Shown: positions 2,845 to 54,810 of the stretch, in pieces
Position numbering within the stretch: position 1 is the stretch's first letter
How the letters are laid out: every line of letters starts with the position of its first letter
DNA from: an uncultured Candidatus Saccharibacteria bacterium
Lineage (GTDB): Bacteria > Patescibacteriota > Minisyncoccia > UBA6257 > JAGOQP01
Assembly: GCA_964420205.1 (NCBI GenBank)
Contig: CAYQSO010000002.1
Coordinates: 7,765 to 71,764 of the forward strand
DNA length: 64,000 nt
Reading direction: 5' to 3'
Program-made: the position numbers and the translations under genes
The notes under the pieces: generated by a model
What the model was told of the DNA's origin: nothing
Seen by the model: only the letters and a program-made list of their open reading frames with translations
The model's database searches: none

Positions 2845-2856
2845 TTTTTCTTCTTC

Positions 2857-3033: not shown

Positions 3034-3041
3034 TCTACTAC

Positions 3042-6539: not shown

Positions 6540-6556
6540 AATCCATACCTACCTTT

Positions 6557-9928: not shown

Positions 9929-9945
9929 TTAACTAATAAACTCAA

Positions 9946-9974: not shown

Positions 9975-10061
9975 CGAAACCCATTTTAATACACAATTAT
10001 CTTAAGAATCTTCGCTTATTTTCTCTTCTAGACTCCCCATAAAAATTCTTACTAACTATAT

Positions 10062-10397: not shown

Positions 10398-10413
10398 TTT
10401 TATCTACTTCTTT

Positions 10414-10967: not shown

Positions 10968-11052
10968 ATATCTATCACAAAGATATATTCTATCTATTTC
11001 ATTTTCTTTAAGTTCTTTTAAAAGCTTATATGTAAGAATACAACACCTATTA

Positions 11053-11481
11053 TTAAACTAAACTACTAACTAAAAAGACCAAACTTGAAATTATTATACA
11101 AATATACACTACACATCTTAAAAATGTGAAGTATTTTTCAAAATTCTTATCCATATATTTCTTATATTGTTGTTTAGATTTTTTTAACCAGTACCCATCT
11201 ACACAAGTAAGAATTACTCCGGGAGCAACAAACATATAAGTACTAGAATCAAACAAATGTGTAGATACTGCTGAAGCTTTTCTCGGTTTATCCATACTTT
11301 GTAAAAAGAATAAATATATCCCCAAAGGGCAAAGTAAAAACAGTATTCGTAAAAATAGATCAATACTTTTGAAAATAACCTCTAATAAAAAGATAAAAAA
11401 TACTTTAGTATAATCTGCGCCAAGTCTGTTAGCTTTCGCAGATATTTTTTCTATTGCTTTTAATTTTAGTTTTTTTAGCAT
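11053..11481 (-). CDS. integral membrane protein
   Basis: Several hydrophobic helices (FFIFLLEVIF, ILFLLCPLGIYLFFL, ICIIISSLVFLVSSLV). Confidence 0.4.
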   Translation of the reverse strand: MLKKLKLKAIEKISAKANRLGADYTKVFFIFLLEVIFKSIDLFLRILFLLCPLGIYLFFLQSMDKPRKASAVSTHLFDSSTYMFVAPGVILTCVDGYWLKKSKQQYKKYMDKNFEKYFTFLRCVVYICIIISSLVFLVSSLV

Positions 11482-11483
11482 AT

Positions 11484-11957
11484 TTACTTACCAGTACTTC
11501 CCCAACCACCGTCACTTCTAATTGTTTCAGAAATCTCATCCACCTCTCTTATTCCCGCTCTACAATATTGCACAATAACCATCTGTGCTATTCTCTCATT
11601 AGGTTGAATAGTATAAGGTTCTTTAGATAGATTAATTAACGGAACACCCACAATACCACGAAAATCTGAATCCAATGTTCCTATACAATTGACAAGTGTT
11701 ATTCCGTGTTTTATTGATAGCCCTGAGCGAGGTCTTATCTGAGCTTCAGTCCCTTCCGGTAATTCTACTATTAATCCTGTGGGGATAATTCTTCTTTCAA
11801 ACGGTTGCAGTGTTATAGGTTCTTTTATACAAGCACTCAAATCCATTCCCGAAGAACCTATTGTTTTATACTCAGGTATTATTGCATTTGGGTCTGCTTT
11901 TTTAATATTAACTTCTGTAATTTTATTTGAACAATTACACATCATCTCTTTTTCCAC
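11484..11957 (-). CDS. dut: dUTP diphosphatase (dUTPase)
   Basis: All five dUTPase motifs are present: GSSGMDL, RPRSGLS, GTLDSDFRGIVGV and the C-terminal RSDGGWGSTGK (motif V). 157 aa. Confidence 0.85.
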   Translation of the reverse strand: MEKEMMCNCSNKITEVNIKKADPNAIIPEYKTIGSSGMDLSACIKEPITLQPFERRIIPTGLIVELPEGTEAQIRPRSGLSIKHGITLVNCIGTLDSDFRGIVGVPLINLSKEPYTIQPNERIAQMVIVQYCRAGIREVDEISETIRSDGGWGSTGK

Positions 11958-11977
11958 CTCTCAATATAAATTATAAT

Positions 11978-12382
11978 TTAACTTTTTTCGAACTTCTCTT
12001 TCAATTCAAGGTACTTTTTATAATCTTCTTCATCTTTCTTTTGGTTAACAATCTTATGTCTATCCAAGCGTTCTTTCTGTTTCTTTTTATAAGATTCTTT
12101 TATTTCTTCTATATAAGACTGTAAAGCATTTTCATCCCAAATAAATTCTTCTTTGAATTTTTTATAAGTATTATCACCACACTCTACAAAAACCTCTCGA
12201 TTACTTATCTCGTACTCCGACTCTTCTACTAAGAAAGCCTCCATGTCATAAGCGTAATCCCAGTCATCAAAAATACTGTATACCACATCAAGTTCTATTA
12301 GAGTATTCCCGATGTCACAAATTCGCTGTTTTATTTTATTTTCCTGTTTTCTAAACTCATAGTATTCTTCTTTTGTAATCAT
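11978..12382 (-). CDS. hypothetical acidic protein
   Basis: 134-aa Glu/Asp/Lys-rich ORF with no diagnostic motif. Confidence 0.3.
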   Translation of the reverse strand: MITKEEYYEFRKQENKIKQRICDIGNTLIELDVVYSIFDDWDYAYDMEAFLVEESEYEISNREVFVECGDNTYKKFKEEFIWDENALQSYIEEIKESYKKKQKERLDRHKIVNQKKDEEDYKKYLELKEKFEKS

Positions 12383-12591
12383 CTACTCTGGTACCCCATC
12401 ATCTTAGACAAACAACTTAAACAAATTTTATCGTGGTACGCTGAACATGTCATATTTACCTTCTTCTTACCACATACACCACATTTTTCACCAAATAAAA
12501 AATCTTTTACAGGCTCTAAAAACTTATGTATTCTATACGTCCAATGAAAACGTACTTTACACGGATAAATTGTATAATCTTCTCGTTTCAT
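12379..12591 (-). CDS. hypothetical zinc-ribbon protein
   Basis: CGVCGKK...C..C..C; 70 aa; starts only 34 nt downstream of the tnpB stop. Confidence 0.3.
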   Translation of the reverse strand: MKREDYTIYPCKVRFHWTYRIHKFLEPVKDFLFGEKCGVCGKKKVNMTCSAYHDKICLSCLSKMMGYQSR

Positions 12592-12625
12592 TATCTTCTG
12601 CTCCGTAATTTGTATTCAAACATAA

Positions 12626-13960
12626 TCATTCTAAAACAATTACATTTGAAGTTACTAATTCGCTTTTTCTTGCTTCATTGTACTCTCTTTTGTTGTTGCT
12701 TGCAACAACTACTTGAGTTTGTTTTAACACTCCACAAGCTTTACTAACTCTAACAGAATTAAAGTTAGTTCCCGACAAGCCATCGGTACATGTATTCCTT
12801 ACTTCATTAAGTAGGATATAATCTTTACAGTTCTTGAGATTAACTGCTGCATTGTAGTCTCTTTGGTGCTCTGCACCACAATTACTACATTTCCAGTTTC
12901 TATCTTTTAATTTTAGTTCTTTATTCTTCTCTCCACAGCTACTACATAACTTACTACTTGGAAAGAATTTATTTACTTCTCTTACTTCTATATTATGTTT
13001 TGTACACTTCTGTACAAGAACTTGTTTAAAATAGTAAGGTTTATTTTGAAGAATAGTTTTAGAAAGATGTTTGTTCCTAACCATTCCTTTAATATTTAAG
13101 TTTTCAACTGTAACATATCTAGGTTTCCCCTTAACTATGTTATCTATACATTTATTAGTATAAGAGTTTCTTATTTGTTCTAACCTGTAGTACACTTTTT
13201 CTACTCTTAGTTTATTTTTAATATAATTGTTACTTACTTTATCTCTCTTTTCTTTCTTCTTAGCTTCGTACTTTCTACTTAAAGCTCTCTGTTCTCTTCT
13301 TAATTTCTTTTCTAACTTTTTAACTCTAGTAGTTTTATTAATGTTTTTGTATTCTTCTTTGTTAGAACATGTTAAGAAAGTACTTATTCCCCAATCAATA
13401 CCAATACCTTCATTACAATTCTTATTATCTTTACTACTCTCTTCATCTGTTATAACAGAGATGAAATATCTATTAGATCTCTTAGTTATTACTCCACTTA
13501 TTATTTTATTGTTTCCTGTAGGGAGGTATCCTTTCTCTTTCAGAGAAACCTCTCCGAACATAGGAATTTTAATTTTATGCCTAGAACATCTTATAGGTCT
13601 GTTTGCCTCTACTCTAACAAAATAAACTCCTGTCTTGTCTTTAGAAGCTTTTTTAAATTTAGGAAATCCTTTCTTTGATTTAAATGCTTTTTGGTAAGTT
13701 GAATTACAATTATCTATAGTCTTTCTAAGAGCTTTACTCCCTGCTTCTTTCAACCAATGTTTATCTTCGTTCTCTTTTAAATAAACATTATTAAACCATT
13801 TAGAGAACTCGTAGTTATTAAGATATTTTTCTCCTGCGGAGTAACGTTCTTTATTAACAGAAATAAAAAGATTCCAGACAAATCTACATGCAGAAATTGT
13901 AAGCTTGTAAAGCTTCTCCTGTTCTTTATTTAGTTTTACTTCTGTCTTGTAAGCTTTCAT
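12626..13960 (-). CDS. tnpB: TnpB (IS200/IS605-family OrfB; OMEGA RNA-guided RuvC nuclease), copy 1
   Basis: Canonical MKAYKTEVKLNKEQEKL N-terminus, C-terminal zinc finger CSSCGEKN...CSNCGAEHQRDYNAAVNL (RuvC-III). The track ORF extends to 14086, but Met43 at 13958..13960 is the likely start, judged by alignment to copy 2. Confidence 0.85.
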   Translation of the reverse strand: MKAYKTEVKLNKEQEKLYKLTISACRFVWNLFISVNKERYSAGEKYLNNYEFSKWFNNVYLKENEDKHWLKEAGSKALRKTIDNCNSTYQKAFKSKKGFPKFKKASKDKTGVYFVRVEANRPIRCSRHKIKIPMFGEVSLKEKGYLPTGNNKIISGVITKRSNRYFISVITDEESSKDNKNCNEGIGIDWGISTFLTCSNKEEYKNINKTTRVKKLEKKLRREQRALSRKYEAKKKEKRDKVSNNYIKNKLRVEKVYYRLEQIRNSYTNKCIDNIVKGKPRYVTVENLNIKGMVRNKHLSKTILQNKPYYFKQVLVQKCTKHNIEVREVNKFFPSSKLCSSCGEKNKELKLKDRNWKCSNCGAEHQRDYNAAVNLKNCKDYILLNEVRNTCTDGLSGTNFNSVRVSKACGVLKQTQVVVASNNKREYNEARKSELVTSNVIVLE

Positions 13961-13993
13961 TGATAAAAAGAAAAGTTCTAAGAAATTATTTTG

Positions 13994-14057
13994 TAAGCAG
14001 ATACAATTCTTCCTAGAACTAAAATTAATATAAATCTTATTTAATTGTATCTGCTTA
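13994..14057. repeat. perfect 15-bp inverted repeat (taagcagatacaatt / aattgtatctgctta) with 34-nt spacer in the presumed IS left end
   Basis: Read directly from sequence (13994..14008 and 14043..14057); lies between the real tnpB start and the over-extended track start. Confidence 0.7.
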
Positions 14058-14175
14058 ATATTATAATTTAACTTAAAATTTTTCATTTAGATTTCCCTGT
14101 AAAGGTATTAAAAATGAATATGTTTTACATATATTTGATTATGTTATGGGAGACTGTTCATTATCTTCTCTCCTC

Positions 14176-28007: not shown

Positions 28008-28829
28008 TTAATAACTCTTAGTTTGAAATCCACTAGCTTTTACATGTCCGCCACCACCGTATTTCTCAGCTAACTTAGAACAGTTTATGTTATCTTTCTT
28101 AGTATAAATAGAAATAGTGTATTGCTGCCCATCATAGAAGAAAGGCATCATCAAATCAAAGTCTTCCTTTACACTGTCAAATAACTTACTCGACGTTTTC
28201 GCTACGTTACAGCAAACTGCTTTATGTCCCTCAAACTCTGCAAAAAACCCAACAGCTTCTATAACCTCTTTATATAACTCAGTTCTATATTGTAAAGCAT
28301 TCCTACCCTTCCCCAATACTTCTTTTAAGCCGTTCCCAAAAACCCAACTCAACCAATTATTACTATTCGGTGAAGTATCAAACAAAACTAAACCCGCTTG
28401 TAAAACATCTAATTGTTTTCCATACTTACCAAAATCCCAGACATCATAATGTCCTACCATTTCTACTGCTTTTGGAACTTTAACATTTGGATTATAATAT
28501 TCCCATGTTAACATGCAACCGGCAGTACCATCTCTTCTTATACCATCAAGAGTTTTGTTCTCTTCTTTATTTTTATTAATCGCTGAAATATGGTGATCAA
28601 TCCATACCACATTTTTAGTAATATCTAATAGTTTTTTAAACTCCCCTTCCTTTTGTAAAGAGAAATCTACTATTATTACTTCTTCATCTTTCTTTATTTT
28701 ATCGAATGGAAAATCTTTATTATAATCCATTTCTATAAGATCGTTATTTTTTACTTTATTTATATTTGCTCTATAAGCTATAAATGCAGAGCATCTTCCA
28801 TCTGCATCATTATGATAAAATATCTTCAT
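28008..28829 (-). CDS. DHH-DHHA1 family phosphoesterase (NrnA/RecJ-core-like)
   Basis: N-terminal HNDADGRCSA (DHH motif I region), WIDHHIS (DHH) and C-terminal GGGGH (DHHA1). Confidence 0.7.
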   Translation of the reverse strand: MKIFYHNDADGRCSAFIAYRANINKVKNNDLIEMDYNKDFPFDKIKKDEEVIIVDFSLQKEGEFKKLLDITKNVVWIDHHISAINKNKEENKTLDGIRRDGTAGCMLTWEYYNPNVKVPKAVEMVGHYDVWDFGKYGKQLDVLQAGLVLFDTSPNSNNWLSWVFGNGLKEVLGKGRNALQYRTELYKEVIEAVGFFAEFEGHKAVCCNVAKTSSKLFDSVKEDFDLMMPFFYDGQQYTISIYTKKDNINCSKLAEKYGGGGHVKASGFQTKSY

Positions 28830-34363: not shown

Positions 34364-35056
34364 CTAAAAATCTGCCTCTCCAATTATTCTACAAAAAGCG
34401 TCTTGCACACTTTCACCGTTCTTCATTTTTCTGCTGAACCCAACAACCCCGCCTTTCCAACTTCCCTTATCACTCCCTATTTCCCTATCAAATTCTATGT
34501 TAAGATCTTGTATTACTCTTTTCGGAAACAATTTCCAAATACCTAATTTCTTTAGAATTCTCCAACTACCTATCCATCTTTCCATTGAACAAGTCGCTAC
34601 TGCTTTCTGATTTAATACATCTTCTGGTAAATGTTCTTTCCACGATGGTAAGCAGTATCTTAAACCAAATTGCCATGTCTTTAATCTATTCTCTTTAAAC
34701 CAATAACGTTCTTTCTCTGTTAAATTCTCCCAGTTTTCCTCTTCTATAATGTCTTCCTTCCACATACCATTTACTGTATAATACTCTTTCGCTACTTGCT
34801 CTATCATCCACGGCATATAAAATATTCGCCAGTTCTGTGGTATCTCTTTACCTATTGGTTTAAAACCTTCACAAACTCCCCAATGAACATATAAACTACC
34901 ATTATCATAAGATACCTCATATTTGTATGTAAGTAACCTATCTAATGATTTAGACACTGGAATGTACCACTTATCATTTATTTTTAAGCACCAAGGGGCT
35001 TTTTGCCCCACGATGCTCTTTTTCGTATAATTAACTAATGCAATACCAAATTTCAT
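34364..35056 (-). CDS. hypothetical Trp-rich protein
   Basis: 230-aa ORF. Confidence 0.3.
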   Translation of the reverse strand: MKFGIALVNYTKKSIVGQKAPWCLKINDKWYIPVSKSLDRLLTYKYEVSYDNGSLYVHWGVCEGFKPIGKEIPQNWRIFYMPWMIEQVAKEYYTVNGMWKEDIIEEENWENLTEKERYWFKENRLKTWQFGLRYCLPSWKEHLPEDVLNQKAVATCSMERWIGSWRILKKLGIWKLFPKRVIQDLNIEFDREIGSDKGSWKGGVVGFSRKMKNGESVQDAFCRIIGEADF

Positions 35057-35251: not shown

Positions 35252-36727
35252 CTAATCGTTAATTATCTCACCACCATCATCTAACTGTTTTTTAAACCAA
35301 TCAGGTTTAGAATTATTAATAGAAGTATTTTGATCTACTGCACCTACTACTTCTTTTCCATCTACCATAGAACCAAAAACCGTTGGTAATTGAATTCCAG
35401 CTTGTTTAGCTAAGTCCTGCATTTGTGGAATCGTACCCATAATATCTCTTGCAAGACCTGAAATAAGACCCTGACCATCTTTTCCACTACTATTTCCAGA
35501 ATCCCAAATAGTAAGTTTATCAATTTTAAGATTTTCAAGAGCTTTAACCTGTTCTTTAATAATAGGTTCAATCTTATCAAGCATTAAATATCCGTTTGCC
35601 ATTGCAGGGTTTCCTCCAGCAGCTTCTACTAGCTTTTTATAACCATCTGCTTGCGCTTTCAGAACCTTCTCAATACCATCTGCTTCTGCATAATACTTAG
35701 CTTTTACAGCGTCTGCCTCGCCTTGAGCTATTCTACGAATTCTCTCTGCTTCTGCTTCTGCTTGTACTGCTATTTTCTGTTTCTCAATTTCTTCTCTTAC
35801 AACTTCTTCTTTTTCTAAGCGAGCTTTTTCTGTAAGTTTCTGTGCCTCTGCTACAGCTTTCTCTGCTTCTGCCTTTGCTATGTCACCTTTTCTCATAGTT
35901 TCAGCTTCCTTAATCTTTAACTGAGCATTTGTTTCAGCAATCACCATTTTAGAAGTATTCTCACCTTCTACAGCAGTTGCATTTAATTCAGCAGTTTTTA
36001 TCCTCCTTTCCTGTTCTGCTCCCACCTGACCAATATTTGTCTGAGCCATTTGCTGTGCCACTTCAACTTCTCTACCTCTTACAGCTTTTGCCTCTCCTGT
36101 AGCACCGAACTGTTCCTGTTGTGCAACTTCTACTCTTGCTTTGTTTATTGCTTCTGAGGCCGCTTTCTTGCCTATGGCTTCAATATAACCAGACTCATCT
36201 GTGATATCTGTTATATTTACATTAATAAGACTTAATCCAATTTTATTAAGTTCTTCTTCTACATTAGTATTGATTTGGTTTAAGAATTTTTCTCTATCTT
36301 GATTAATTTCTTCTATAGTTAAAGTTGCTGCTACTAACCTTAGTTGGCCAAATATAATATCCCTAGCCTGTTCTACTATTTCCTTTTCTGAAAAATCTAA
36401 CAATCTTTCTGCTGCATTCTGCATAAGTTCATCTTTTGTTGACACTGCAAAAGTAAACGTAGAAGGAATATTAATTCTAATATTCGTCTTAGATAAAGCT
36501 CCTTTAAGGTCAATATCAGCTACCATAGGATGTAATGATAAGTACCCGTAGTCTTGTAAAATAGGAATTACGAATTTACCACCACCATGATAACTCTGAG
36601 CAGATTTACTACCTGTTTTACCAAAAACTACTAAAATCTGATTAGAAGAACAACGTTTATACTGCGCTATAAAAACAGTAGATGCTACTCCTAATCCACC
36701 TAAACCAAATAAACTTTCTAAAATCAT
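35252..36727 (-). CDS. flotillin-like SPFH/band-7 membrane protein (FloT/YuaG-like)
   Basis: N-terminal membrane anchor (LFGLGGLGVASTVFIA), SPFH domain and a long Glu-Ala-rich coiled coil (AKAEAEKAVAEAQK...AVQAEAEAERIRRIAQGEADA) characteristic of flotillins. Confidence 0.7.
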   Translation of the reverse strand: MILESLFGLGGLGVASTVFIAQYKRCSSNQILVVFGKTGSKSAQSYHGGGKFVIPILQDYGYLSLHPMVADIDLKGALSKTNIRINIPSTFTFAVSTKDELMQNAAERLLDFSEKEIVEQARDIIFGQLRLVAATLTIEEINQDREKFLNQINTNVEEELNKIGLSLINVNITDITDESGYIEAIGKKAASEAINKARVEVAQQEQFGATGEAKAVRGREVEVAQQMAQTNIGQVGAEQERRIKTAELNATAVEGENTSKMVIAETNAQLKIKEAETMRKGDIAKAEAEKAVAEAQKLTEKARLEKEEVVREEIEKQKIAVQAEAEAERIRRIAQGEADAVKAKYYAEADGIEKVLKAQADGYKKLVEAAGGNPAMANGYLMLDKIEPIIKEQVKALENLKIDKLTIWDSGNSSGKDGQGLISGLARDIMGTIPQMQDLAKQAGIQLPTVFGSMVDGKEVVGAVDQNTSINNSKPDWFKKQLDDGGEIIND

Positions 36728-38353: not shown

Positions 38354-41300
38354 TTAGAGCGGTTTCGGTATTAAAGTAGTACGTGATTCATCATCTACCC
38401 ATTTAAAATCGAATATTTGTCCAAAACGATACCCCAGTCCAATTGTAGCTTTAATAGGCAAAGGCCAATCTGGTAAGCTAAAATACATTATATCTTCTAT
38501 TAACCTAGTGTATTCTACTATTTTATCTAAATCAACATAAAGGTTCACTTCGTCATGTATTGTCGAAAGAAAAGCACACTCTTTTTCTTTTTCGGATATA
38601 CTAAATATTTTCTGATACATCTTCTTAAGAACTATACGCATAATATCCCCCGCACTTCCCTGGATTATGTGGCTGCTGACTCTTCTCTCAGCAGCAGATA
38701 TCATATTATTTGACTCTCTTTCACCTTTCCTAGGGTCTTCTGCTTCTCTTTCTATCCTCTCAGCCATATTTACATATGACCCGAAGCGTCTGGGCCTCCC
38801 ACAGAACGTAAATGTAGTTCCGGCATTATTCCACATCTTATTTATTTCATTTTGTCTCCATTGCATAGCCCCAAAAAAAGCTTCACAATAGGCATCATAA
38901 AGAGCTGTTGCGTGTTCTAACGGGATTCCAGAATTCTTAGATATGGAATCAGAATGACCACTATAATTTATAGCAAAATTCACAGCCTTTGCTATTTTTC
39001 GTAGCCCCTTGTTATAATTTTCTCTACCCCATATAGCGTACGCTGTCGCAGTATGTGGATCAATACCTTCCCTGAAATTTGATAACTTTACACTATCTTT
39101 ACTGTAATTAGTAAGGAGAACGTCTTCCTGTGAACTGTAATCCACACTCAAAATAATCTTTTTCTTACTATTAACCTTTTTAAATGATGGAACTACTACA
39201 CAATTTCTAATATTAAAATTAGGGGAGAACCCTTCTACTAAATAACAGTCTTCTGAGTCAGTGTGGTTTTTAATGTCTTCATCAGACATTAAATCAAAAC
39301 ACCAACCTAATATATTACCCTCTTTCTCAGATTTGTATGCTTTATAAATCGCTCCTGACGGTTTACTAAGATTCTGCGCATTAAGATCTATATAATAGGG
39401 GTTCTTAGTCTTCTTATCACTCTTACTCCCATTACCACTTGCAAATCTCCCTGAAGCGGTCCCAAAAAGTTTATATCTCATCCTACACTCATCTACCTTA
39501 GTCAGTTTATCAATGTAACTATTGATAGCCTTATTCATAGTAGAGTACTTCTGTATCTTCTTTAAAATACTTAACTTTTCATTTTCTTTTTTAAGCATTA
39601 TTTTTAATATTTTTAAAAAATATTTTCTATTGAGAATTCTACTTCCTTTTTTAAGCGGAACTAGTTTCTTATTTTTATTCTTTCTTTTCGCTCTGCTCAA
39701 TACTCTTATAGTATTGTTATTCAACTGCATTACTTGGAAATAGTCACTCCCATGTGCTTCTAGTATTTTATATAAATAAAACATATCTACGTGTTCTCTT
39801 ATATGTAATTCTGAAGCACAAAATCCTTTTGTAAAATAACCTTCTTCATTCTTTTCTAATTTTTCTATAATACCTCGTAAATCTGTTAAATTCTTAGAAA
39901 ATATTCTTGTACCATCTTTTTTACCAAAAGAAATCTGATCTGTATCTGTCCTTGCCCCAGTATCTATATTCTTAGATGCCATAGCATTTTTAAACTCTTT
40001 AGAAGAGGTACTAAGGTTGAATATTCCTATATCAAAATAATTATATATTTCCTCCTTAAGCTGAGTTATTACTTCGATAGCTTTTTCTTTATATTTTTTA
40101 GCTTCTTCTTTATCTATATAAAGTTTAGTATGTCCATAATAATCAATCCAATACCTTATAAGAGTGTTGTCTGATTTTATAACGTCAAATTTTTTACCGT
40201 TAAACTCTACTATATTGGGGTAAGTACTTATTAGTTTTTTAACTTTCGGATATAAATAGTAAAAAAGTGCCAAGCAGCAACATGAGTCTGCACAATTACC
40301 CGAAACCAAGACTTTACCATTTCTTCTAGTTATTAAAGTGTGATTTGGTACTTCTGCACAATAAACCACCCCACTATATGGAACAATTTCTCTCTGGTAT
40401 TTCTTGTATCTAACACTTTTCTGTCTTTGTGTGTACACACTATAAATTTGGTGCACATTTTCTCTTTTTATTACACGTCCTCTAATAACACAGTCTTTTT
40501 TAGGTGGTGCTTTTAAAGTTAATATACTAGTCCTACCACCCAACATTAATAGCTCTTGTAACTGATTAGCCATTTTGATAGATGTAGTATAAAAAACCCA
40601 CGCTGAGTCAGTTTTTCTAGACCCATCACAATAATTAAAATATTTTAGAAACTCATTTATACAGTACGAATCCATTTTAAAAATTTCAGGTGGAATATAC
40701 TTTTTCTGAGCCTTACCTTCCATATAAGGTTTTATCCAATTATAAAACTTTTTATTATAACAAACCCAGCTATTCCCTTTTTCTCTTTTGTTAGGGCGAA
40801 ACCCCATATTAGTTTCCATTAACATATTTTCTAACTCTTTTTTGAATTTATCGCTACAAACAGCCAGCCCTATGTGATAACAAACTTGCTTGTCGCCTCT
40901 TTGAACAATCCAACCATCTGCCAACAACGCACCTGTTAATCTGGCTAATTGTACAGGGGTTAAATTAACATTCTTACTAAAATGAAAAGAATCCTTCCCA
41001 CTACCTTTCTTCTCTGTGGGAGCTTTATAACCGCTTTCTTCAACTAAAAGATCTTTTGCCTGTTTGAATACCCATTCTTTATGTTGTGCTCGCTTAACTA
41101 GCATATTATGGTTGGGGGTAACACAAAAATCAAGATGTTTACTTTTATAAGAAATCATCTCTCCTTTATATTCATACGCATATAACCTTAGAGGACGCTG
41201 GTACTCTAATTCATCTTTTTCCACATTTACAGTAGCTAAAAGGTCTTCTCCATTATAATCTTTCCACATTACCCAACCATTTTCAGTCAATACTTCAGTC

Positions 41301-42319
41301 TGATCATCGTGGCATGCATAAATAACTGTGCTCCTATCGTAGGGGCATACATACTTGAATTCACCCGGAAATTCTAACATAGTACGTCCTAGATACAATT
41401 TAGCACTTAACTTAAGTCCTGCCATTTTTGACTCCGCATCAAAAAGATACGGAAGTATCATAGAGTCAAAAAAGTTAACTTTTTCAATAGAATAACCTTC
41501 TTTCTTATACATATTAAGGTCAAATTCAGCATTATGGATTACTACTAACTTTGCACTTGTTAAAGCTTTATATAAAATATCAAGGGACTTTTTTGCACTT
41601 CTCTCATTTTCTTCTTCTGTTAAAACATAACTAGAAACTTCCATTTCAGATAAATGCTTTTCAAAGTCTCCTATCATACAGTCTATACTACCAAGTTTAG
41701 CTTCTACTACTTCTTTTTCTAAATCTTTAGAATTTTCAAGAAAGTTTTCTTTATCTTGTTTTAACCCATCTATTAATTTTTGCGTCTCTTCTCTTTGTCT
41801 CTGTAATTCTAATTGCTCCCTTACTTCTTTGCTACATATATTTCCATTATGTAATGAATACTCATACGTCTTTACCGTAGTCTGACTTACTCTTCCTGTT
41901 TTAGTATATACTACATTTCCTTCTTCATCTAATTTAGGAACTTTTTCTGAACCCACTTCTTTTTTTCGCATATGTCTCAAAGGGCAATAAATCCCCGAAT
42001 TGTCGTCCAGTGAAAGAGAGAACCCTACAATGTAATCACCACCTTCTTCTCGAGGTGAACTGTTCAGTCCAGTAGTTTCAGTGTCAAACCCGATTATCTT
42101 ATCTTTACAAAGTTCTACGAATTCTTCCAACTCTTCTAAAGTATTAACAAGTTTATAGTCCCCTAAATAAATAAGATTCCCTTCCTCATCGTATTTATGA
42201 AACTTATTATCAAACTCTCTATAACCATGTACAGGTATATATTTGTACAACGTTTTACTGCTTTTTTTCTTTTGTTCTACCTTTTGTTGAACATATTTTT
42301 TCTTATAATCTTTTGTCAT
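38354..42319 (-). CDS. family A DNA polymerase (3'-5' exo plus polymerase domains) precursor containing an intein
   Basis: Exo I IGFDTETTGL; polymerase motif A LSVDYSSQE, motif B RKIAKAVNFAINYS, motif C LSTIHDEVN. The likely true start is MTKDYKK, 12 codons inside the track ORF (which begins at 42355). Confidence 0.85.
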   Translation of the reverse strand: MTKDYKKKYVQQKVEQKKKSSKTLYKYIPVHGYREFDNKFHKYDEEGNLIYLGDYKLVNTLEELEEFVELCKDKIIGFDTETTGLNSSPREEGGDYIVGFSLSLDDNSGIYCPLRHMRKKEVGSEKVPKLDEEGNVVYTKTGRVSQTTVKTYEYSLHNGNICSKEVREQLELQRQREETQKLIDGLKQDKENFLENSKDLEKEVVEAKLGSIDCMIGDFEKHLSEMEVSSYVLTEEENERSAKKSLDILYKALTSAKLVVIHNAEFDLNMYKKEGYSIEKVNFFDSMILPYLFDAESKMAGLKLSAKLYLGRTMLEFPGEFKYVCPYDRSTVIYACHDDQTEVLTENGWVMWKDYNGEDLLATVNVEKDELEYQRPLRLYAYEYKGEMISYKSKHLDFCVTPNHNMLVKRAQHKEWVFKQAKDLLVEESGYKAPTEKKGSGKDSFHFSKNVNLTPVQLARLTGALLADGWIVQRGDKQVCYHIGLAVCSDKFKKELENMLMETNMGFRPNKREKGNSWVCYNKKFYNWIKPYMEGKAQKKYIPPEIFKMDSYCINEFLKYFNYCDGSRKTDSAWVFYTTSIKMANQLQELLMLGGRTSILTLKAPPKKDCVIRGRVIKRENVHQIYSVYTQRQKSVRYKKYQREIVPYSGVVYCAEVPNHTLITRRNGKVLVSGNCADSCCCLALFYYLYPKVKKLISTYPNIVEFNGKKFDVIKSDNTLIRYWIDYYGHTKLYIDKEEAKKYKEKAIEVITQLKEEIYNYFDIGIFNLSTSSKEFKNAMASKNIDTGARTDTDQISFGKKDGTRIFSKNLTDLRGIIEKLEKNEEGYFTKGFCASELHIREHVDMFYLYKILEAHGSDYFQVMQLNNNTIRVLSRAKRKNKNKKLVPLKKGSRILNRKYFLKILKIMLKKENEKLSILKKIQKYSTMNKAINSYIDKLTKVDECRMRYKLFGTASGRFASGNGSKSDKKTKNPYYIDLNAQNLSKPSGAIYKAYKSEKEGNILGWCFDLMSDEDIKNHTDSEDCYLVEGFSPNFNIRNCVVVPSFKKVNSKKKIILSVDYSSQEDVLLTNYSKDSVKLSNFREGIDPHTATAYAIWGRENYNKGLRKIAKAVNFAINYSGHSDSISKNSGIPLEHATALYDAYCEAFFGAMQWRQNEINKMWNNAGTTFTFCGRPRRFGSYVNMAERIEREAEDPRKGERESNNMISAAERRVSSHIIQGSAGDIMRIVLKKMYQKIFSISEKEKECAFLSTIHDEVNLYVDLDKIVEYTRLIEDIMYFSLPDWPLPIKATIGLGYRFGQIFDFKWVDDESRTTLIPKPL
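40295..41314 (-). mobile_element. intein in DNA polymerase (about 340 aa, LAGLIDADG type) inserted in the Exo III motif (YA|C..D)
   Basis: VIYA|CHDDQTEVLTENGW...LARLTGALLADGW...FLKYFNYCDGS...VPNHTLITRRNGKVLVSGN|CADSCCCLALFYYL; the extein junction restores the Y-x-x-x-D exo motif. Coordinates by residue counting (aa 348..687). Confidence 0.6.
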
Positions 42320-42644
42320 TATTAAAATTAACTCCTGTACTAGATAAACCAACATTAGTGAAATTAAAATCTTTGTACTTCCACCAATCTTTTTTCTTCA
42401 TCATCTTTTTAACTTTTCTTGGGTACTTATCCCACCTACAGTACTTCCCGATACCTAATATGTAATTAAATATTATTAATTTTACTCTATTTTCTATATT
42501 AGTTTGAATTTCTCCCACACATTCGCCATAGGGCTCTCTTACAGCAGAAGTAGCAGTATCTCTTGACTCACATAAATATTGAGACGATATTCCTGTTGCC
42601 ATAACAATGTCTTGTCTTAATTTATATAATCTCTCTTCTATCAT
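42303..42644 (-). CDS. hypothetical protein
   Basis: 113-aa ORF upstream of the polymerase. Confidence 0.3.
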   Translation of the reverse strand: MIEERLYKLRQDIVMATGISSQYLCESRDTATSAVREPYGECVGEIQTNIENRVKLIIFNYILGIGKYCRWDKYPRKVKKMMKKKDWWKYKDFNFTNVGLSSTGVNFNNDKRL

Positions 42645-43828
42645 CTATTAATTCTCTCTACTACTTCTCCTACACCTAAATTCATTAAATATTCCTGAGC
42701 TGTTGCAGGTAAAATCCTAATATCATCTCTTAACTCTTTTTCTAATATCTCACACTGCTCCTGTTCTAAAATATTTTTCGCCATATTATCTATTAAACAC
42801 CTTTTATCAATATCTTTTAACTCTAACTTTATATCCATCCTACCATCTCTTAAAAAGGCTCGGTCTAATTTATCAATATGATTAGTTGTGAAAAAACAAA
42901 TAAGACTTTCCGGTGTATTTATTCCGTCAAAAATATTCAAAAGATTTGACAATGATAACCTACTGTCACTATCATTACTATTATATACAATACTACCTTC
43001 CCCCCCACTATTTCCTCTACTCTTACTCAAACATCTCTCATGTACGTCTACTCCCGCTGCATCAATGTCCTCTATGAGAAATATTGTATTTTTATTACAA
43101 GCCAATATTCTCTGTAAATCATTAAAACTACCCATAGTTTCTAAATTAACTATACATATTTTAAAACCAAAATAAGAGGCCAGCGCCCATACTAATGAAG
43201 TTTTACCTGTCCCTGGAGTTCCATAAAATAAATAGTTTCTCTTATAAGAAATTCCTTTAGACCTATAGGATTGTTTACTGTCTAAAAAAGAACTTATATC
43301 TTTTATTAAAAAATCTTTATCTTTCTGCGAGAGAGCTATTGTATTTAAAGGTCTTTTACCCTTTAAAAACCTAGTATACCCTGAAATAACTACAACGTCA
43401 TCCTCATAAGCAGAATCATTAAACTGCGTTACCTCATCTAATATAGTACTAACATCTTTAAGGTTTCCGAAAAAAACTTTTATTGTAATAGAATCTATTA
43501 CTTTAAAACTTCCATTTTTATCTATTCTCTCTTTTCCCACAGAACAAAATTTCCCGTTGATATTATAAAGAGACTGGCCATATCCTACACCCAAAAAAGT
43601 TTTTTCTACTTCTTCATTTTCTTTTAATTGATAGGTATTACAAAATACTACCTTCTGTTGCCCCAACCACCCCTCTAACTTATTAAATAATTCTTCATTT
43701 ACAGAGTTATCTATAGTAATCTGTTTATAAACTAAATTACTTATTAAATCAAATAAACTAGTTACATGATTTTTTAAAGTAACGAATATTAACCCGCCTA
43801 TTCCTAATTCTATTCCTGATATAGTCAA
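42641..43828 (-). CDS. BCS1-like AAA+ ATPase
   Basis: Walker A LFYGTPGTGKTS, Walker B IFLIEDIDAAG, and LSNLLNIFDGINTPESLICFFTTNHIDKLDRAFLRDGRMD matching the BCS1 sensor and arginine-finger region. Confidence 0.75.
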   Translation of the reverse strand: MTISGIELGIGGLIFVTLKNHVTSLFDLISNLVYKQITIDNSVNEELFNKLEGWLGQQKVVFCNTYQLKENEEVEKTFLGVGYGQSLYNINGKFCSVGKERIDKNGSFKVIDSITIKVFFGNLKDVSTILDEVTQFNDSAYEDDVVVISGYTRFLKGKRPLNTIALSQKDKDFLIKDISSFLDSKQSYRSKGISYKRNYLFYGTPGTGKTSLVWALASYFGFKICIVNLETMGSFNDLQRILACNKNTIFLIEDIDAAGVDVHERCLSKSRGNSGGEGSIVYNSNDSDSRLSLSNLLNIFDGINTPESLICFFTTNHIDKLDRAFLRDGRMDIKLELKDIDKRCLIDNMAKNILEQEQCEILEKELRDDIRILPATAQEYLMNLGVGEVVERINR

Positions 43829-43838
43829 TTTATAAAAC

Positions 43839-44054
43839 CTATATCTTTCCTGTTATGTATAAATGTAAACAATAACAATAATCACAAATAATTTTATTCT
43901 CTAATAAATAAGAAAATCCTTGAGGAAATTTTGTCCTACATTGTTCACATATTATTTCTGTATTAAACCATTCCTCATTTTCTTTTCTCATTTCTTCTAT
44001 ATCTGATTTAAACAACCTCACCATTCTACCACCATAACAGATGCCATAGTCCAA
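43839..44054 (-). CDS. hypothetical zinc-ribbon protein
   Basis: CEQCRTKF...CDYCYC; 71 aa. Confidence 0.3.
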   Translation of the reverse strand: MDYGICYGGRMVRLFKSDIEEMRKENEEWFNTEIICEQCRTKFPQGFSYLLENKIICDYCYCLHLYITGKI

Positions 44055-44118
44055 TTCTGTACTCTAAAACCTACTATATTACTCAGTAAAATTCTCTTCA
44101 GAAATTTTCCTAGCTTCT

Positions 44119-44856
44119 TTAGCCGTTAACATCTACGCACCCCATTTTTTCTTTACACATATAATATTCTCTTAGACAATTTCCACAATCCTTACACTTT
44201 ATAACTCCGTCACAATAATATACTAACTTATTCTTATAAATATCTTTTAGCTTATTAATATAATCTATTTTTAAACACCAGTAACTATTAGTAACCCGTT
44301 GCCTAAATTCATAATAATCTTTATAATCTTCAGGGCCTCTTTCATTATAATATGACATAAAAGTCAAGACTACCGGTATATTATTATCTGTATAATAATG
44401 TATCGCAGGTTCTACTACACTTTTTAAATTCCACATATTAACTCTAACCCTAACAAACATCAAATTACTTGGTACAGGACTTAATTTATGAAAAAATTTA
44501 TCTGTCATTTCCGCAGGGTTAACCGTTAATACCACAGGGGCTTTAAAACCCTCAATATCTCTTGGGATAGATGTATTATAAAAATAATCATCAAATTGCT
44601 CTGCCGTAGACATTACGAGTTCTCGTTGAATATTTGAGTCATTCCCGTCATTCATACGAACCACCTTTCCTTTAGTCATTTCTAACGATGGTATGTGTGG
44701 TAAATTTTCTGACAGCGGCTCTATATACGAACGTCCACTTTGAAAAAAACAATCTTTACATCCTACAGGACATTCACCCTCTTGTGGAATACATTCTATT
44801 ATTCCACTGCCTATTAACTTAGGATTTCTTTTAAACACCTTACTACTCACTTTCAC
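44119..44856 (-). CDS. Fe-S protein with radical-SAM-type CX3CX2C motif and second C-terminal Cys cluster
   Basis: ECPVGCKDCFF (C-x3-C-x2-C) at residues about 29..36; C-terminal CDGVIKCKDCGNC...C...C; 245 aa. No clear GGEP-like SAM motif seen. Confidence 0.35.
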   Translation of the reverse strand: MKVSSKVFKRNPKLIGSGIIECIPQEGECPVGCKDCFFQSGRSYIEPLSENLPHIPSLEMTKGKVVRMNDGNDSNIQRELVMSTAEQFDDYFYNTSIPRDIEGFKAPVVLTVNPAEMTDKFFHKLSPVPSNLMFVRVRVNMWNLKSVVEPAIHYYTDNNIPVVLTFMSYYNERGPEDYKDYYEFRQRVTNSYWCLKIDYINKLKDIYKNKLVYYCDGVIKCKDCGNCLREYYMCKEKMGCVDVNG

Positions 44857-45424
44857 AATTGTTATACTTAACTATATAATCATATAAATCTTCTATTGTC
44901 TTTATATTATTTACTACATAAAAACTATCATCTTTTGTTTTATACACAAAATCCTGAAATAAAGCTAACCCGTCTTCTCCAACACAACCTTCTAATGCTA
45001 CTTCAAACGAAAATAAAATACTCTCGTAAATTTCATCTGTATTTATAAATCCTGTGTCTTCTAATTTTTCTTTATCCTGTACATATTTTATATAATAATC
45101 ATAAATACGAATAAACTTCTTTTTAGATATATTTATGTTAGTATCCAAATAAACAATATCCCCACTCTCCACTAGGTAGTCATTTGAATTTATAAAATAG
45201 CCCGTAGTGCAGCCTGTATCTAACCTAGAATTTGGTTCATATCCAACCTCATAAAGCTTACACTTACCCTCTTCCCAAAAGTCCCCAACGTGTTTTTTAC
45301 ACACATGCCAATAATTAACAGAATAATTAAGACTACACTCATCCACTACCGTAAAATAAGCTGGACTCTCACACCGAACACCATCTTTACAGTAACAACA
45401 CTTAATTTCCTCTTCTTCACTCAT
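44843..45424 (-). CDS. hypothetical Cys-rich protein
   Basis: IKCCYCKDGVRCES plus further Cys and His residues; 193 aa. Confidence 0.3.
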   Translation of the reverse strand: MSEEEEIKCCYCKDGVRCESPAYFTVVDECSLNYSVNYWHVCKKHVGDFWEEGKCKLYEVGYEPNSRLDTGCTTGYFINSNDYLVESGDIVYLDTNINISKKKFIRIYDYYIKYVQDKEKLEDTGFINTDEIYESILFSFEVALEGCVGEDGLALFQDFVYKTKDDSFYVVNNIKTIEDLYDYIVKYNNCESE

Positions 45425-48363: not shown

Positions 48364-49083
48364 CTATTTTTTAAGTTTCCTACTTCTACGTCGCCATAAA
48401 ATACTTTGTCTTACCTGCTCAAAAACATGCTTATGGTAATTATCATATTCTGCTGTAGGTATTGAGTTACAATGTAGAAGCCCCTCTTCTATAGTAGACC
48501 TACTACTTAGTAACTCTTTAGAATATTCATCTATAGTTCCATTAACTATTATAAACCTTATTTTAAATATATCAAACTTACCAAACATCCTAGCAATACG
48601 CCCAATAACCTGCCTAAATTTGCGATACGCAGTGGGTACTGTATAAAGGATAAGTTCATCAGTAGGATTAAGATTAAGAGAGGCTCCCCCCGCATCACTA
48701 ATAAAAACTATCTTTCTTTCTGGATTATCATGAAACCAGTCTTCTACTTCTTTTCTTTTGTGTGTTTTCTCAACACCTGTTATCTTTTTACACTGAACGT
48801 TAATGTCTTTACTTTTTATAAATTCTATTAAATTAGAGATTGTTTTTACTCTTTTTGCATAAACAACTACACCTTTATCTATAATCTTTTTACCAGAATC
48901 CTCATCCACTACCTCAGCCAATACTTTAAAGAACAAGTCTTTTTTCTCATCGGTATTATCTACATATTCCTGCATATCGGCAAGAGCAGCACCGACATTT
49001 AACTTCTTTTTCTTCTCTTTAGAAGAGTTACTCTTCTTTATTATATTTAGTGCTTTTTGTAGATTTAGATTTATCTTTGGCAT
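48364..49083 (-). CDS. SF2 helicase, C-terminal domain (motif VI)
   Basis: FRQVIGRIARMFGKFD corresponds to helicase motif VI (QxxGRxxR); continuation of the upstream ORF after a frame change. Confidence 0.5.
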   Translation of the reverse strand: MPKINLNLQKALNIIKKSNSSKEKKKKLNVGAALADMQEYVDNTDEKKDLFFKVLAEVVDEDSGKKIIDKGVVVYAKRVKTISNLIEFIKSKDINVQCKKITGVEKTHKRKEVEDWFHDNPERKIVFISDAGGASLNLNPTDELILYTVPTAYRKFRQVIGRIARMFGKFDIFKIRFIIVNGTIDEYSKELLSSRSTIEEGLLHCNSIPTAEYDNYHKHVFEQVRQSILWRRRSRKLKK

Positions 49084-49891
49084 TTTTTTCCAACCCTATC
49101 TTTATTATACTATCATACTCTTTATAGTCTTTTAACTCAGTAGTATATTCAAAAAACTTTAAATTTATTTTAGGGAAATAAAAATAAGTAAACGATTCGA
49201 GCTCTTTTCTTAGTCCTGAAATATTAATGTACTCTACAGGGTCCATTCTAAGAAACTTCCCCCTCCAATCTTTAACTTCTTCTTCTACTATATATTTTTG
49301 TTTAAATTCCTTTATAGCACTGCTTAAATATTTATAATATTTTTCCGGTCTTACCAAACACATCATACCTAAAACCTGTAACAAAGAACTCGACCACGGG
49401 GTAGCTGTCATCGCTATGATTCTATCCCACATAAAATAAATTTTCTGGTAAGCACCGTGAACTATAGAATCGTAGTTATTCATTTCGTGTGCTTCATCTA
49501 TAATTAGTAATATCTTCTTATAATTCTTAGTTAAAGACTTTTTAAAGAATTGAATGTTTTCTTCATCTAACCCAATATCCTTAATCATAGAATGTTTTAT
49601 TAAAATTATTTTATCATCACCCTCAACAGCCTTTTTAAAATCTTCTACTAATTCAATTATACTTAGTTTTATACCTAATTTTTCAGCATCTTTAATAAAA
49701 GGAGTCGTTGCTGAAGGTGTTGCTACAATAACTATTTTATCTATCATTTTATTTTTATACAAATAACGTCCTGTAAAGACCGAGGATAGGGTCTTACCTG
49801 CACCTGCTGATACAAACCATAAACACTTCTTAATATTTATAGCAAATTTAGCTGCGTTTTGCTGATAATCTCTTAAAACTATTTTTTTCAT
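49028..49891 (-). CDS. SF2 helicase, N-terminal RecA-like domain (motifs I, II, III)
   Basis: Walker A FVSAGAGKTL, DEAH box LIIDEAHEM and motif III MTATP. Overlaps the downstream ORF by 56 nt in another frame. Confidence 0.6.
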   Translation of the reverse strand: MKKIVLRDYQQNAAKFAINIKKCLWFVSAGAGKTLSSVFTGRYLYKNKMIDKIVIVATPSATTPFIKDAEKLGIKLSIIELVEDFKKAVEGDDKIILIKHSMIKDIGLDEENIQFFKKSLTKNYKKILLIIDEAHEMNNYDSIVHGAYQKIYFMWDRIIAMTATPWSSSLLQVLGMMCLVRPEKYYKYLSSAIKEFKQKYIVEEEVKDWRGKFLRMDPVEYINISGLRKELESFTYFYFPKINLKFFEYTTELKDYKEYDSIIKIGLEKNAKDKSKSTKSTKYNKEE

Positions 49892-52108: not shown

Positions 52109-53026
52109 CTAAGCTAAAATAGAAATAAGTTTGTTTATTTCTTTTTTCCACTCACCTTCTATGTAATCATAAGTAAGATTTATAAGGTTTGGGATATTCT
52201 CTATTGTGTTCATTGCATCTAATTTTTCTGGGAGAATTGGATTAAACACGAATCTACGATCTTCGTCTAGTAATTTTTGAATAGCATAGCTTGTCGTATC
52301 ACTTTGCCCATCATTCACTATGTCGAAGAGAGAAGATGCCCAATTAAATACTGTCCAATTCTTAATCTTATTAAAAGGTATTGAATAAGAATAACTACCT
52401 GTCCCAATACTTACTACTATTACTTCTTTATCTGGGAACATCTTTTTTGCTTCAATATACCCATATATTGTAGGATCATTGGCAAAAACACCCCCATCTA
52501 TCAGAGACATACTTCCTATCTTATAAGGTGGGAAGTATGTAGGAGCCGCACTAGTTGCACGAGCAAACTTCCATATCTCAATATCCTCATATATCTCTTG
52601 AGTAGAATTTATAAAACGGGCTTGTCTATCTTTAGTATCATACATAGTAGTTATGACAGGATTACTTAAAGTTGTTAAAGTATACTCACCTAGCTTCTCC
52701 TTTAAAATACCTTCGATGCCCTCTGAAGAATGTTTATGTTTGATATAATTTATAGGCCACTTAAAAATTCTTTTATCAAAAATTTTTTTAGCCGACTCAC
52801 CTGTAAAGAAATCTATTACGTCTTTTGTAGTATACCCTTGCCTACACGTATAAAGATAAGATAAAATACCCCCTACAGAAGTACCTATAAAAGCATCAAA
52901 TAAATCTCTCGGCTGCTTCCCCGTTAAATTAAAAATATGGTGAAGCAAAATAGCTTGTATAACTCCTTTACAACCCCCACCCGAAAGACTAAGTAATACT
53001 ACCCTATTTTTACCTATTTTCATCAT
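52109..53026 (-). CDS. patatin-like phospholipase
   Basis: Oxyanion loop SGGGCKG, nucleophile elbow GTSVGG (GxSxG), ATSAAPTYFPP and DGGVFANDP (catalytic Asp). Confidence 0.8.
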   Translation of the reverse strand: MMKIGKNRVVLLSLSGGGCKGVIQAILLHHIFNLTGKQPRDLFDAFIGTSVGGILSYLYTCRQGYTTKDVIDFFTGESAKKIFDKRIFKWPINYIKHKHSSEGIEGILKEKLGEYTLTTLSNPVITTMYDTKDRQARFINSTQEIYEDIEIWKFARATSAAPTYFPPYKIGSMSLIDGGVFANDPTIYGYIEAKKMFPDKEVIVVSIGTGSYSYSIPFNKIKNWTVFNWASSLFDIVNDGQSDTTSYAIQKLLDEDRRFVFNPILPEKLDAMNTIENIPNLINLTYDYIEGEWKKEINKLISILA

Positions 53027-53339: not shown

Positions 53340-54810
53340 TATTGTTCTCCTTACCTATTGACTTTTAATCTGTTGAACTAAAGACTCTATATACAAATCA
53401 AACTGCTCCAAATTAGTAACTTTAAACATAATTTATCCTACTTGAAGTTACTAATTCGCTTTTTCTTGCTTCTCCAGTATACCTGTTAGGTATACAATCG
53501 TACTCTCTTTTATCACCAGAGGCGACTACTTGAGTTTGTTTTAACACTCCACAAGCGTTAATTCCCGACAAGCCATCGGTATTTACACTATTTAACAATG
53601 TGTATTCTTTACAATTCTTAAGGTTTACTGCTGCATTGTAGTCTCTCTGGTGCTCTGCACCACAACTACTACATTTCCAGTTCCTATCTTTTAATCTTAA
53701 CATATTATTTTTAGTATTACAAATACTACATAATTTAGATGAAGGGTAAAATCTACCTACTTCTCTTACTTCTATATTATGTTTAGTACACTTTTGTGTT
53801 AGAGTTTGTTTAAAGTAATAAGGTTTATTTTGTAGGGTAGCTTTACTTAGATGTCTGTTTTTAACCATTCCTTTTACATTAAGGTTCTCAATAGAAACAA
53901 ATTTAGGTTTCTTCCTAACTATATCATCAATACACTTATTAATGTAGGAATTTCTTATTTGTTCTAACCTATAATGAAGTTTAGAAACTTTATCTTTATT
54001 CTTTATATAATTGTTAGAAACTCTATCTCTTTTCTCTTTTTTCTTGGCCTCGTACTTCCTATTTAAAGCTCTCTGTTGTCTTTTAAGATTTTTTTCTAGC
54101 TTCTTAATCTTAGTAGTCTTATTAATATTTTCGTAACTAGTACTATTAGAACATGTCAAATATGTACTAATCCCCCAGTCAGCACCAATTCCTTCATTAC
54201 AATTCCTGTAATCTCTCGTACTCTCCTCGTATACTATAACAGAGATAAAATACTTACTAGCTCTCTTAGTTATTGCTCCACTTATTATTTTATTAGACTC
54301 TATAGGAAGATATCCTTTTTCTTTTATGTGTATCTCTCCAAACATAGGAACTTTTATCTTGTGTCTCTCACATTTAATAGGTTTATCTAAAGATGCTCTT
54401 ACAAAATATACCCCTGTCTTATCAGTAGAAGCTTTTTTAAATTTAGGAAATCCTTTCTTCTCCTCCATAAATTTAACATAAGTATTATCACAATTCATCA
54501 TTGTCTTCCTAAGAGCTTTACTTCCAGCTTCCTTTAACCACTGTTTATCTTCATTCTCTTTGAGATACTCATTATTGAACCATTTACTAAAGTTGTAGTT
54601 ATTAAGATATTTTTCTCCTACGGAGTATCTTTCTTTATTAACAGAGATAAACAAATTCCAGACAAACCTACAAGCTGAAGTAGTAAGCTTGTAAAGCTTT
54701 TCCTGTTCCTTATTTAATTTTATCTCTGTTCTATAAGCTTTCATTAATGGGACTGTTCTATCTTTTATACTCATCAAATGTGTAAAATAATGTTATTAAA
54801 ATTTAATTTA
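53340..54810 (-). mobile_element. second TnpA-less IS605-family element (boundaries approximate)
   Basis: tnpB copy 2 with a 10-bp inverted repeat aattagtaac/gttactaatt flanking its stop codon (53411..53456) and a 3' flank partly shared with copy 1 (aaacataat). Confidence 0.45.
53422..54744 (-). CDS. tnpB: TnpB (IS200/IS605-family OrfB; OMEGA RNA-guided nuclease), copy 2
   Basis: MKAYRTEIKLNKEQEKLYKLTTSACRFVWNLF N-terminus; CSICNTKNN...CSSCGAEHQRDYNAAVNL C-terminus. Roughly 70 percent identical to copy 1 by eye. The track start at 54777 is 11 codons upstream of the canonical MKAY start. Confidence 0.85.
   Translation of the reverse strand: MKAYRTEIKLNKEQEKLYKLTTSACRFVWNLFISVNKERYSVGEKYLNNYNFSKWFNNEYLKENEDKQWLKEAGSKALRKTMMNCDNTYVKFMEEKKGFPKFKKASTDKTGVYFVRASLDKPIKCERHKIKVPMFGEIHIKEKGYLPIESNKIISGAITKRASKYFISVIVYEESTRDYRNCNEGIGADWGISTYLTCSNSTSYENINKTTKIKKLEKNLKRQQRALNRKYEAKKKEKRDRVSNNYIKNKDKVSKLHYRLEQIRNSYINKCIDDIVRKKPKFVSIENLNVKGMVKNRHLSKATLQNKPYYFKQTLTQKCTKHNIEVREVGRFYPSSKLCSICNTKNNMLRLKDRNWKCSSCGAEHQRDYNAAVNLKNCKEYTLLNSVNTDGLSGINACGVLKQTQVVASGDKREYDCIPNRYTGEARKSELVTSSRINYV

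Follow-up and report, generated by a model that had tools for sequence, protein, structure and literature searches.

Layout of the locus and its surroundings

The window that we analysed is a 64-kb stretch of DNA with a GC content of about 30%, the minus strand of which carries nearly every sizeable ORF. Four neighbouring genes on this strand, which an earlier note on the same DNA had delineated at identical coordinates, are listed here together with the motifs discussed below.

42641..43828, minus strand: BCS1-family AAA+ ATPase, 395 aa (Pfam, PDB, hhalign and Foldseek)
43199..43222, minus strand: Walker A motif of the ATPase, GTPGTGKT (from the translation)
43839..44054, minus strand: 71-aa zinc-ribbon-like ORFan, with CxxC at residues 36-39 and 57-60
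44119..44856, minus strand: protein of 245 aa (or 239 aa) from a radical-SAM-fold Fe-S enzyme family without annotation
44176..44214, minus strand: C-terminal CX5CX2CX2C motif of the 245-aa protein (C215, C221, C224, C227), CDGVIKCKDCGNC, predicted auxiliary metal or Fe-S site
44749..44772, minus strand: CX3CX2C motif of the 245-aa protein (C29, C33, C36), CPVGCKDC, predicted site of the SAM-cleaving [4Fe-4S] cluster
44843..45424, minus strand: 193-aa ORFan, Cys-rich at its N-terminus (8 of 10 Cys within residues 9-72)

The ATPase gene and the 71-aa gene are 10 nt apart, and 64 nt separate the latter from the 245-aa gene. The 193-aa and 245-aa genes overlap by 14 nt, or are separated by a 4-nt gap if the 245-aa gene is read from an alternative start at 44838, which gene callers prefer and which yields a protein of 239 aa. 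No terminator-like site was found across the four genes between 41.8 and 46.6 kb, and promoter-like matches around them did not exceed the level expected by chance. The description of three consecutive Cys-rich genes beside an ATPase was borne out, in that Cys accounts for 8.5%, 4.5% and 5.2% of the residues of the 71-aa, 245-aa and 193-aa proteins, respectively, compared with 1.68% in the 38 other ORFs of the window.

The four genes belong to a block of replication and nucleotide-metabolism genes in an uncultured phage. This block also encodes a family-A DNA polymerase with an intein, two helicases (one DnaB-like, the other split and of the SNF2 type), a 5′-3′ exonuclease, a ligase-like protein, a RecA-like protein, ThyX, and a class II (B12-dependent) ribonucleotide reductase with an intein, after which comes a corrinoid adenosyltransferase. 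Two metagenome contigs (L001 and L002) represent the same phage with an identical gene order, and the largest contig bearing these proteins is 83,277 bp; a megablast search of the region against 50,697 deposited phage genomes returned no nucleotide match.

Two of the Cys-rich proteins, the 71-aa zinc-ribbon protein and the 193-aa protein, are lineage-specific ORFans. The former has a weak LIM-like Pfam match (1.8e-4) that lies under the cut-off, and among 108 loci it has no relatives outside this same phage. The latter matched no family in Pfam, PHROGs or NCBIfam, and its sole match among 5.8 billion clusters was itself. A recurrent zinc-ribbon partner was also sought upstream of relatives of the ATPase, and none was found.

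The BCS1-family ATPase

What kind of ATPase is encoded at this locus? The 395-aa protein is a BCS1-family AAA+ ATPase, because its best matches in the PDB sequence, profile and Foldseek comparisons are all BCS1, in agreement with the earlier note. Pfam AAA (PF00004) matches residues 199-337 at 9e-18, and both G203, P205, G208 and K209 of Walker A and E253-D254-x-D256 of Walker B are invariant in the alignment of its relatives. A search of PDB sequences placed BCS1 chains best (E~1e-29), with Cdc48/p97 following at ~1e-16 (5e-16). Both PF08740 and PF00004 are present in homologs whose alignment spans 84-96% of the query. In a profile-profile comparison by hhalign, the phage ATPase group matched BCS1_N-bearing proteins, a profile that takes in eukaryotic mitochondrial BCS1, with a probability of 100 and an E-value of 5e-68 over 382 columns, phage-group columns 1-403 pairing with columns 1-415 of the BCS1_N-bearing profile.

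The AlphaFold model of the ATPase (pLDDT 77) comprises an N-terminal helix (residues 3-33), a beta-rich domain resembling the Bcs1-specific domain (~34-157) and an AAA domain (~168-395). When this model was searched with Foldseek, full-length Bcs1 cryo-EM chains ranked at the top (E 2e-26 to 1e-21, ~380-420 columns), followed by B. subtilis YjoB (8e-17) and then by proteasome ATPases and generic AAA proteins (~1e-10). The Bcs1-specific N-terminal domain is recognised by profile and fold and not by the Pfam model itself: a Pfam scan of the ATPase gave no direct match to BCS1_N (PF08740), and the N-terminal 188 aa alone matched no PDB sequence, solved Bcs1 included. The predicted N-terminal helix is Gly-rich and hydrophobic, with a maximum 19-residue hydropathy of 1.43 that would be marginal for a membrane anchor, the corresponding values in BCS1_N-bearing relatives being 1.1-2.0.

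The full-length architecture of helix, beta-rich domain and single AAA domain is shared with mitochondrial Bcs1 (PDB 6uko, 6sh3, 8tp1, 9gs2) and likewise with the BCS1 orthologs of jumbo phages (PMC7824862). The ATPase of the window differs from Bcs1 in its marginal N-terminal hydrophobic segment and in having no bc1 complex context. YjoB (PDB 7w42, 7w46), a bacterial Bcs1-like AAA+ protein, is the second-best structural family (E~1e-16, ~410-420 columns), but at 18% identity its match is clearly weaker than that of Bcs1.

The further statement that BCS1-type ATPases are uncommon in phages proved to be wrong. A tblastn search with the ATPase matched 152 deposited phage records, 19 of which cover at least 80% of the query, and phiTE, RSL2, CcrPW and Munch are among the phages matched; the protein also matches phrog_7485 from end to end (5e-64). 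BCS1 orthologs have been described in all three major groups of jumbo phages, and a role in membrane-proximal virion assembly was suggested for them (Iyer et al., PMC7824862). The ATPase is thus of a kind already known from large phages. The genes beside its relatives differ from case to case: primase/helicase in phiTE and, elsewhere, T4-like head genes, HNH endonucleases, a GroEL/HSP20 neighbourhood or hypothetical early genes. The protein presumably forms a ring and remodels or translocates folded proteins.

The 245-aa protein and its family

The loop that follows strand beta-1 is where the cluster of radical SAM enzymes is bound. The core of the 245-aa protein is a partial (beta/alpha) TIM barrel of the radical SAM type, and the CX3CX2C motif of the protein lies at that position, in the loop right after beta-1 (strand 19-23). 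Among the 89 full-length representatives of its family, a set restricted to members that align through the C-terminus (the copy in a second phage, at locus L082, has a different Cys-rich tail), C29, C33, C36, C215, C221, C224, C227, D73 and R136 are invariant in all 89, and N11, K13, R67, N69, S74, T95, T111, N113, M133 and T165 are near-invariant. The proposals that the CX3CX2C motif is of the radical SAM type and that a second Cys cluster is present are both supported, the former by fold and by three Cys conserved in 89/89 representatives, and the latter by four Cys of the C-terminal motif conserved in as many. A zinc-finger structural protein accompanied by a clamp-loader-like ATPase, the outcome named in the earlier note as fatal to its idea, is not what the analysis found.

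A partial (beta/alpha) barrel with CX3CX2C after beta-1 is common to this protein and SPL, QueE, MoaA, NifB and viperin, and MoaA also has a second Cys cluster at its C-terminus. In contrast to these enzymes, with which it has no detectable sequence homology, the 245-aa protein is unusually compact (~240 aa), several of its barrel helices are reduced, and it has a four-Cys CX5CX2CX2C tail and motifs of its own. The invariant motifs specific to the family are NPK, NDG[NH]DSN, FNT, TxNP, MxxRxR and LTFMAYY. An aromatic residue before the third Cys (CxxxCx-aromatic-C) is common in the radical SAM superfamily, although not universal; here, position 35, before the third Cys, is a near-invariant Asp, and the aromatic residue (F/Y37) comes after it. 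Residues G71-x-D73 (after beta-2), T111-x-N113 (after beta-4) and T165-F-M167 (beta-6) are candidate equivalents of the SAM-binding motifs of the superfamily (GGE-like, ribose and GxIxGxxE-like), judging from where they stand relative to the strands.

Searches with the 245-aa protein and 42 separate members against Pfam and NCBIfam, including PF04055 and its relatives, gave no match at E<=1, and neither the single sequence nor the family profile found anything but noise among PDB sequences, with no match at E<=10. Accordingly, no sequence homology to SPL, QueE, anSME/SPASM, NrdG/PFL-AE or MoaA was detected in PDB, Pfam or NCBIfam, and PHROGs yielded a single marginal match (0.016). When the family was compared by hhalign with two genuine radical SAM proteins, the probability was below 1%, and only beta-1 and CX3CX2C were aligned, in register. 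Homologs of the protein fall into 1,451 clusters, all unnamed and as a rule 55-63% identical to it, and an exhaustive profile search of 1.84 billion representatives with the family recovered only 247 proteins at E<=1e-3. By such sequence comparisons, the family is compact, without a bridge into the large radical SAM superfamily.

Because the protein combines a radical SAM fold and motif with a miss in profile searches and an Asp before the third Cys, we call it radical-SAM-fold or radical-SAM-like, and its catalysis is something that we infer. Within the radical SAM structural superfamily, it represents a sequence-orphan branch that had not been annotated before. The ATPase had been known earlier; the Fe-S protein is a newly recognised sequence-orphan form of a known kind of enzyme. 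We found no prior description of the family in the literature. Catalogues of radical SAM enzymes are built from sequence profiles, and families such as this one are therefore left out of them. Tightly conserved, with two clusters and a radical SAM fold, and missed by every profile library, the family represents enzymatic dark matter of considerable size.

The family occurs only in uncultured phages and in bacteria of candidate phyla (Patescibacteria). A tblastn search with the Fe-S protein found no member in the 50,697 deposited phage genomes. Among 185,579 species genomes the family occurs 18 times, only in metagenome-assembled genomes (MAGs) and mostly in Patescibacteria, and IMG/VR contains 80 loci, several of which lie on contigs of 130-460 kb. 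Some MAG copies have ordinary chromosomal contexts, with IMPDH directly upstream (L092), or with rpoC (L094), IspD/GHMP kinase (L102) or a NUDIX-cytidylyltransferase (L096) as neighbours; other MAG copies are on phage contigs binned with the MAGs.

Fusions involving family members were also considered. An HNH intein interrupts one member, and a Pfam scan of 10 fused members revealed no known domain apart from one intein. About nine members bear a small N-terminal Cys motif that is unrelated to the 193-aa protein of the window, and neither this protein nor the 71-aa or a 155-aa protein of the window is related to the N-terminal extensions of fused members. In one protein (P0278), the C-terminal extension looked NDT-like at first, but a profile comparison revealed no match between it and the cluster of NDT-like neighbours.

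Gene context and function

Do the ATPase and the Fe-S protein form a system? The earlier note suggested that the AAA protein could be a chaperone dedicated to an Fe-S enzyme, and by analogy with Bcs1 and the folded Rieske Fe-S protein the ATPase could be a chaperone, unfoldase or translocase of the adjacent enzyme. A BCS1-like ATPase was found beside the Fe-S gene in two of 76 non-redundant loci (1,639 genes, within about 10 kb). One of these is the present phage, in which the ATPase is two genes downstream of the Fe-S gene. The other (L082) belongs to an unrelated phage of higher GC content, the Fe-S copy of which is only 45% identical; its ATPase, a distant relative (E 1e-23), starts 16 nt past the Fe-S stop codon. 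Conversely, no Fe-S family member was present in 12 loci around ATPase relatives, including the nearest at 35-41% identity (10 distinct loci, because L088-L090 and L118/L119 are duplicates). The comparison of genomic context thus revealed no conserved arrangement of ATPase, Fe-S and Cys-rich genes across loci. Because the ATPase accompanies 2/76 Fe-S loci, the Fe-S family accompanies 0/12 ATPase loci and the ORFans occur nowhere else, the pairing is not a conserved module. The L082 locus is a single independent recurrence, noteworthy but statistically thin (n=2).

The reading that we regard as probable is that the four genes are functionally independent, comprising a phage BCS1 ATPase, two ORFans and a sequence-orphan branch of the radical SAM superfamily. 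That the ATPase should instead serve the adjacent Fe-S enzyme seems to us unlikely. It is a full-length BCS1 homolog, and in both co-occurring loci it lies one or two genes downstream of the Fe-S gene on the same strand; at ~21 genes per locus, two such placements would arise by chance with a probability of roughly 0.01-0.04, by our own estimate from n=2. However, such an ATPase is missing within about 10 kb in 74 of the 76 Fe-S loci, the closest ATPase relatives have no Fe-S gene nearby, and none of the 152 deposited phage genomes that match the ATPase contains the Fe-S family. The chromosomal copies in Patescibacteria likewise adjoin IMPDH, rpoC or IspD and have no ATPase, and because nearly the whole 64-kb window is co-directional, adjacency on the same strand is weak evidence. 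We give even less credence to a broader scheme, in which the Fe-S family would be a new radical SAM class of Patescibacteria and uncultured phages that performs an undescribed nucleotide or DNA transformation, and a few phages would have recruited a BCS1-type ATPase as its handler. If this were true, the recruited ATPase acting on a folded Fe-S protein would be a parallel, in viruses of prokaryotes, to Bcs1 and the Rieske protein.

If the genes are independent, as we favour, what might the 245-aa protein do? When the two genes closest to the Fe-S gene on either side were scanned in bulk with Pfam in the 76 non-redundant loci, no obligate partner emerged, and the consistent theme among these neighbours was nucleotide metabolism and DNA replication or modification. 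A more specific link to DNA methyltransferases was not upheld: these genes were not enriched at adjacent positions in the 76 loci, and the 12 loci that seemed to have a D12 methylase directly downstream came mostly from related phages, with the methylases 0.4-2 kb away on either side. The substrate may accordingly be a nucleotide or DNA, as the gene context suggests. In the mechanism that we envisage, C29, C33 and C36 would hold a [4Fe-4S] cluster, the fourth iron of which would bind SAM; reductive cleavage of SAM would generate a 5′-deoxyadenosyl radical that could abstract hydrogen from the substrate, and the substrate would be positioned or oxidised by an auxiliary cluster (or zinc) bound to the C-terminal cysteines.

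More specific assignments were also weighed. A lyase similar to spore photoproduct lyase, which would reverse a DNA lesion, is improbable as an identity for the protein; the fold scores fail to separate SPL from other radical SAM subfamilies. We consider it very unlikely that the protein binds zinc or has a structural function without being catalytic, its resemblance to radical SAM enzymes being generic TIM-barrel similarity, because a purely structural role would fit poorly with the fold, with the genomic setting and with the invariant polar residues. That the protein activates a glycyl-radical enzyme, for instance an anaerobic (class III) ribonucleotide reductase, is scarcely credible. The ribonucleotide reductase of this phage is of class II and has its own adenosylcobalamin-forming enzyme next door, which makes a NrdG-type activase unlikely; moreover, the ribonucleotide reductases that neighbour other Fe-S loci are also of class II, no NrdD or PFL-type neighbour was seen in the Fe-S loci, and activase profiles in Pfam and NCBIfam gave no match to the protein.

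The family is small and well defined, and it should therefore be a tractable target for anaerobic biochemistry. Its substrate, once identified, could reveal a new modification of nucleotides or DNA, or a step of salvage in organisms of minimal metabolism. The bearers of the family, phages from anoxic habitats and Patescibacteria, have all so far escaped cultivation. As an anecdotal observation, in one phage contig contained in a MAG (L112), RecA, SSB, PolB and six DNA methylases are encoded around the Fe-S gene.

Surroundings of the Fe-S family and of the BCS1-like ATPase at other loci

How is the Fe-S family, whose fold is that of radical-SAM proteins, placed in other phages? In L112, a phage contig binned as Patescibacteria, six DNA methyltransferase genes (two of the D12 type, three N6_N4 and one MT-A70) occupy 7.5 kb at positions 5426-12849. 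The Fe-S family gene on this contig is flanked by two methyltransferase genes, with overlapping start and stop codons. In about nine members of the family, the N-terminus is lengthened by a conserved segment of ~50-90 aa that contains the motif DGxCMCSCxDxCPxGK...RCTKEE (P0004, P0005, P0012, P0022, P0027, P0037, P0049 and P0099 are named carriers); this small Cys-rich module is without any Pfam match.

In one phage (L118/L119, positions 2191-4532 and 8001-9215), a BCS1-like ATPase gene lies a few kilobases from phage-encoded GroEL (Cpn60) and HSP20 genes. This proximity is a hint that some ATPases of the family sit among protein-folding genes.

Split, repeated and intein-interrupted genes in the window

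48364-49891, minus strand: SNF2/ResIII helicase in two overlapping open reading frames
12626-14086 and 53422-54777, both minus strand: a phrog_506 'transposase' present as two paralogs (E~1e-92)
38354-42355, minus strand: family-A DNA polymerase, 1,333 aa, intein-interrupted
6557-9928, minus strand: class II ribonucleotide reductase, 1,123 aa, intein-interrupted

The helicase is divided into an N-terminal ResIII/SNF2 part of 287 aa and a C-terminal Helicase_C part of 239 aa. Contig L001, an independent one, shows the gene divided in the same way, so this is no assembly error. The phrog_506 copies, which are probably TnpB/OrfB-like, lie in the same orientation ~40 kb apart within the phage genome. 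Both intein-interrupted proteins matched LAGLIDADG and intein-splicing domains; an HNH intein is present in P0298, an Fe-S family member from another locus.

Possible cofactor-supply, counter-defence and signalling genes

5892-6539, minus strand: ATP:corrinoid adenosyltransferase (CobA/CobO/BtuR; 4e-41)
34364-35056, minus strand: CBASS inhibitor Acb3-like protein (PF25187, 1.5e-21)
35252-36727, minus strand: SPFH/Band 7-flotillin protein (3.5e-29), adjoining the preceding gene
52109-53026, minus strand: patatin-like phospholipase
4679-5572, minus strand: R2K-clade ATP-grasp protein
28008-28829, minus strand: DHH/DHHA1 phosphoesterase

Adenosylcobalamin may be a cofactor that the phage produces for itself; the adenosyltransferase gene is located directly downstream of the B12-dependent ribonucleotide reductase gene. 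The phospholipase, ATP-grasp and phosphoesterase genes possibly serve in counter-defence or nucleotide signalling. At other loci, Band 7 proteins also occurred twice among the neighbours that lie downstream of Fe-S family genes.
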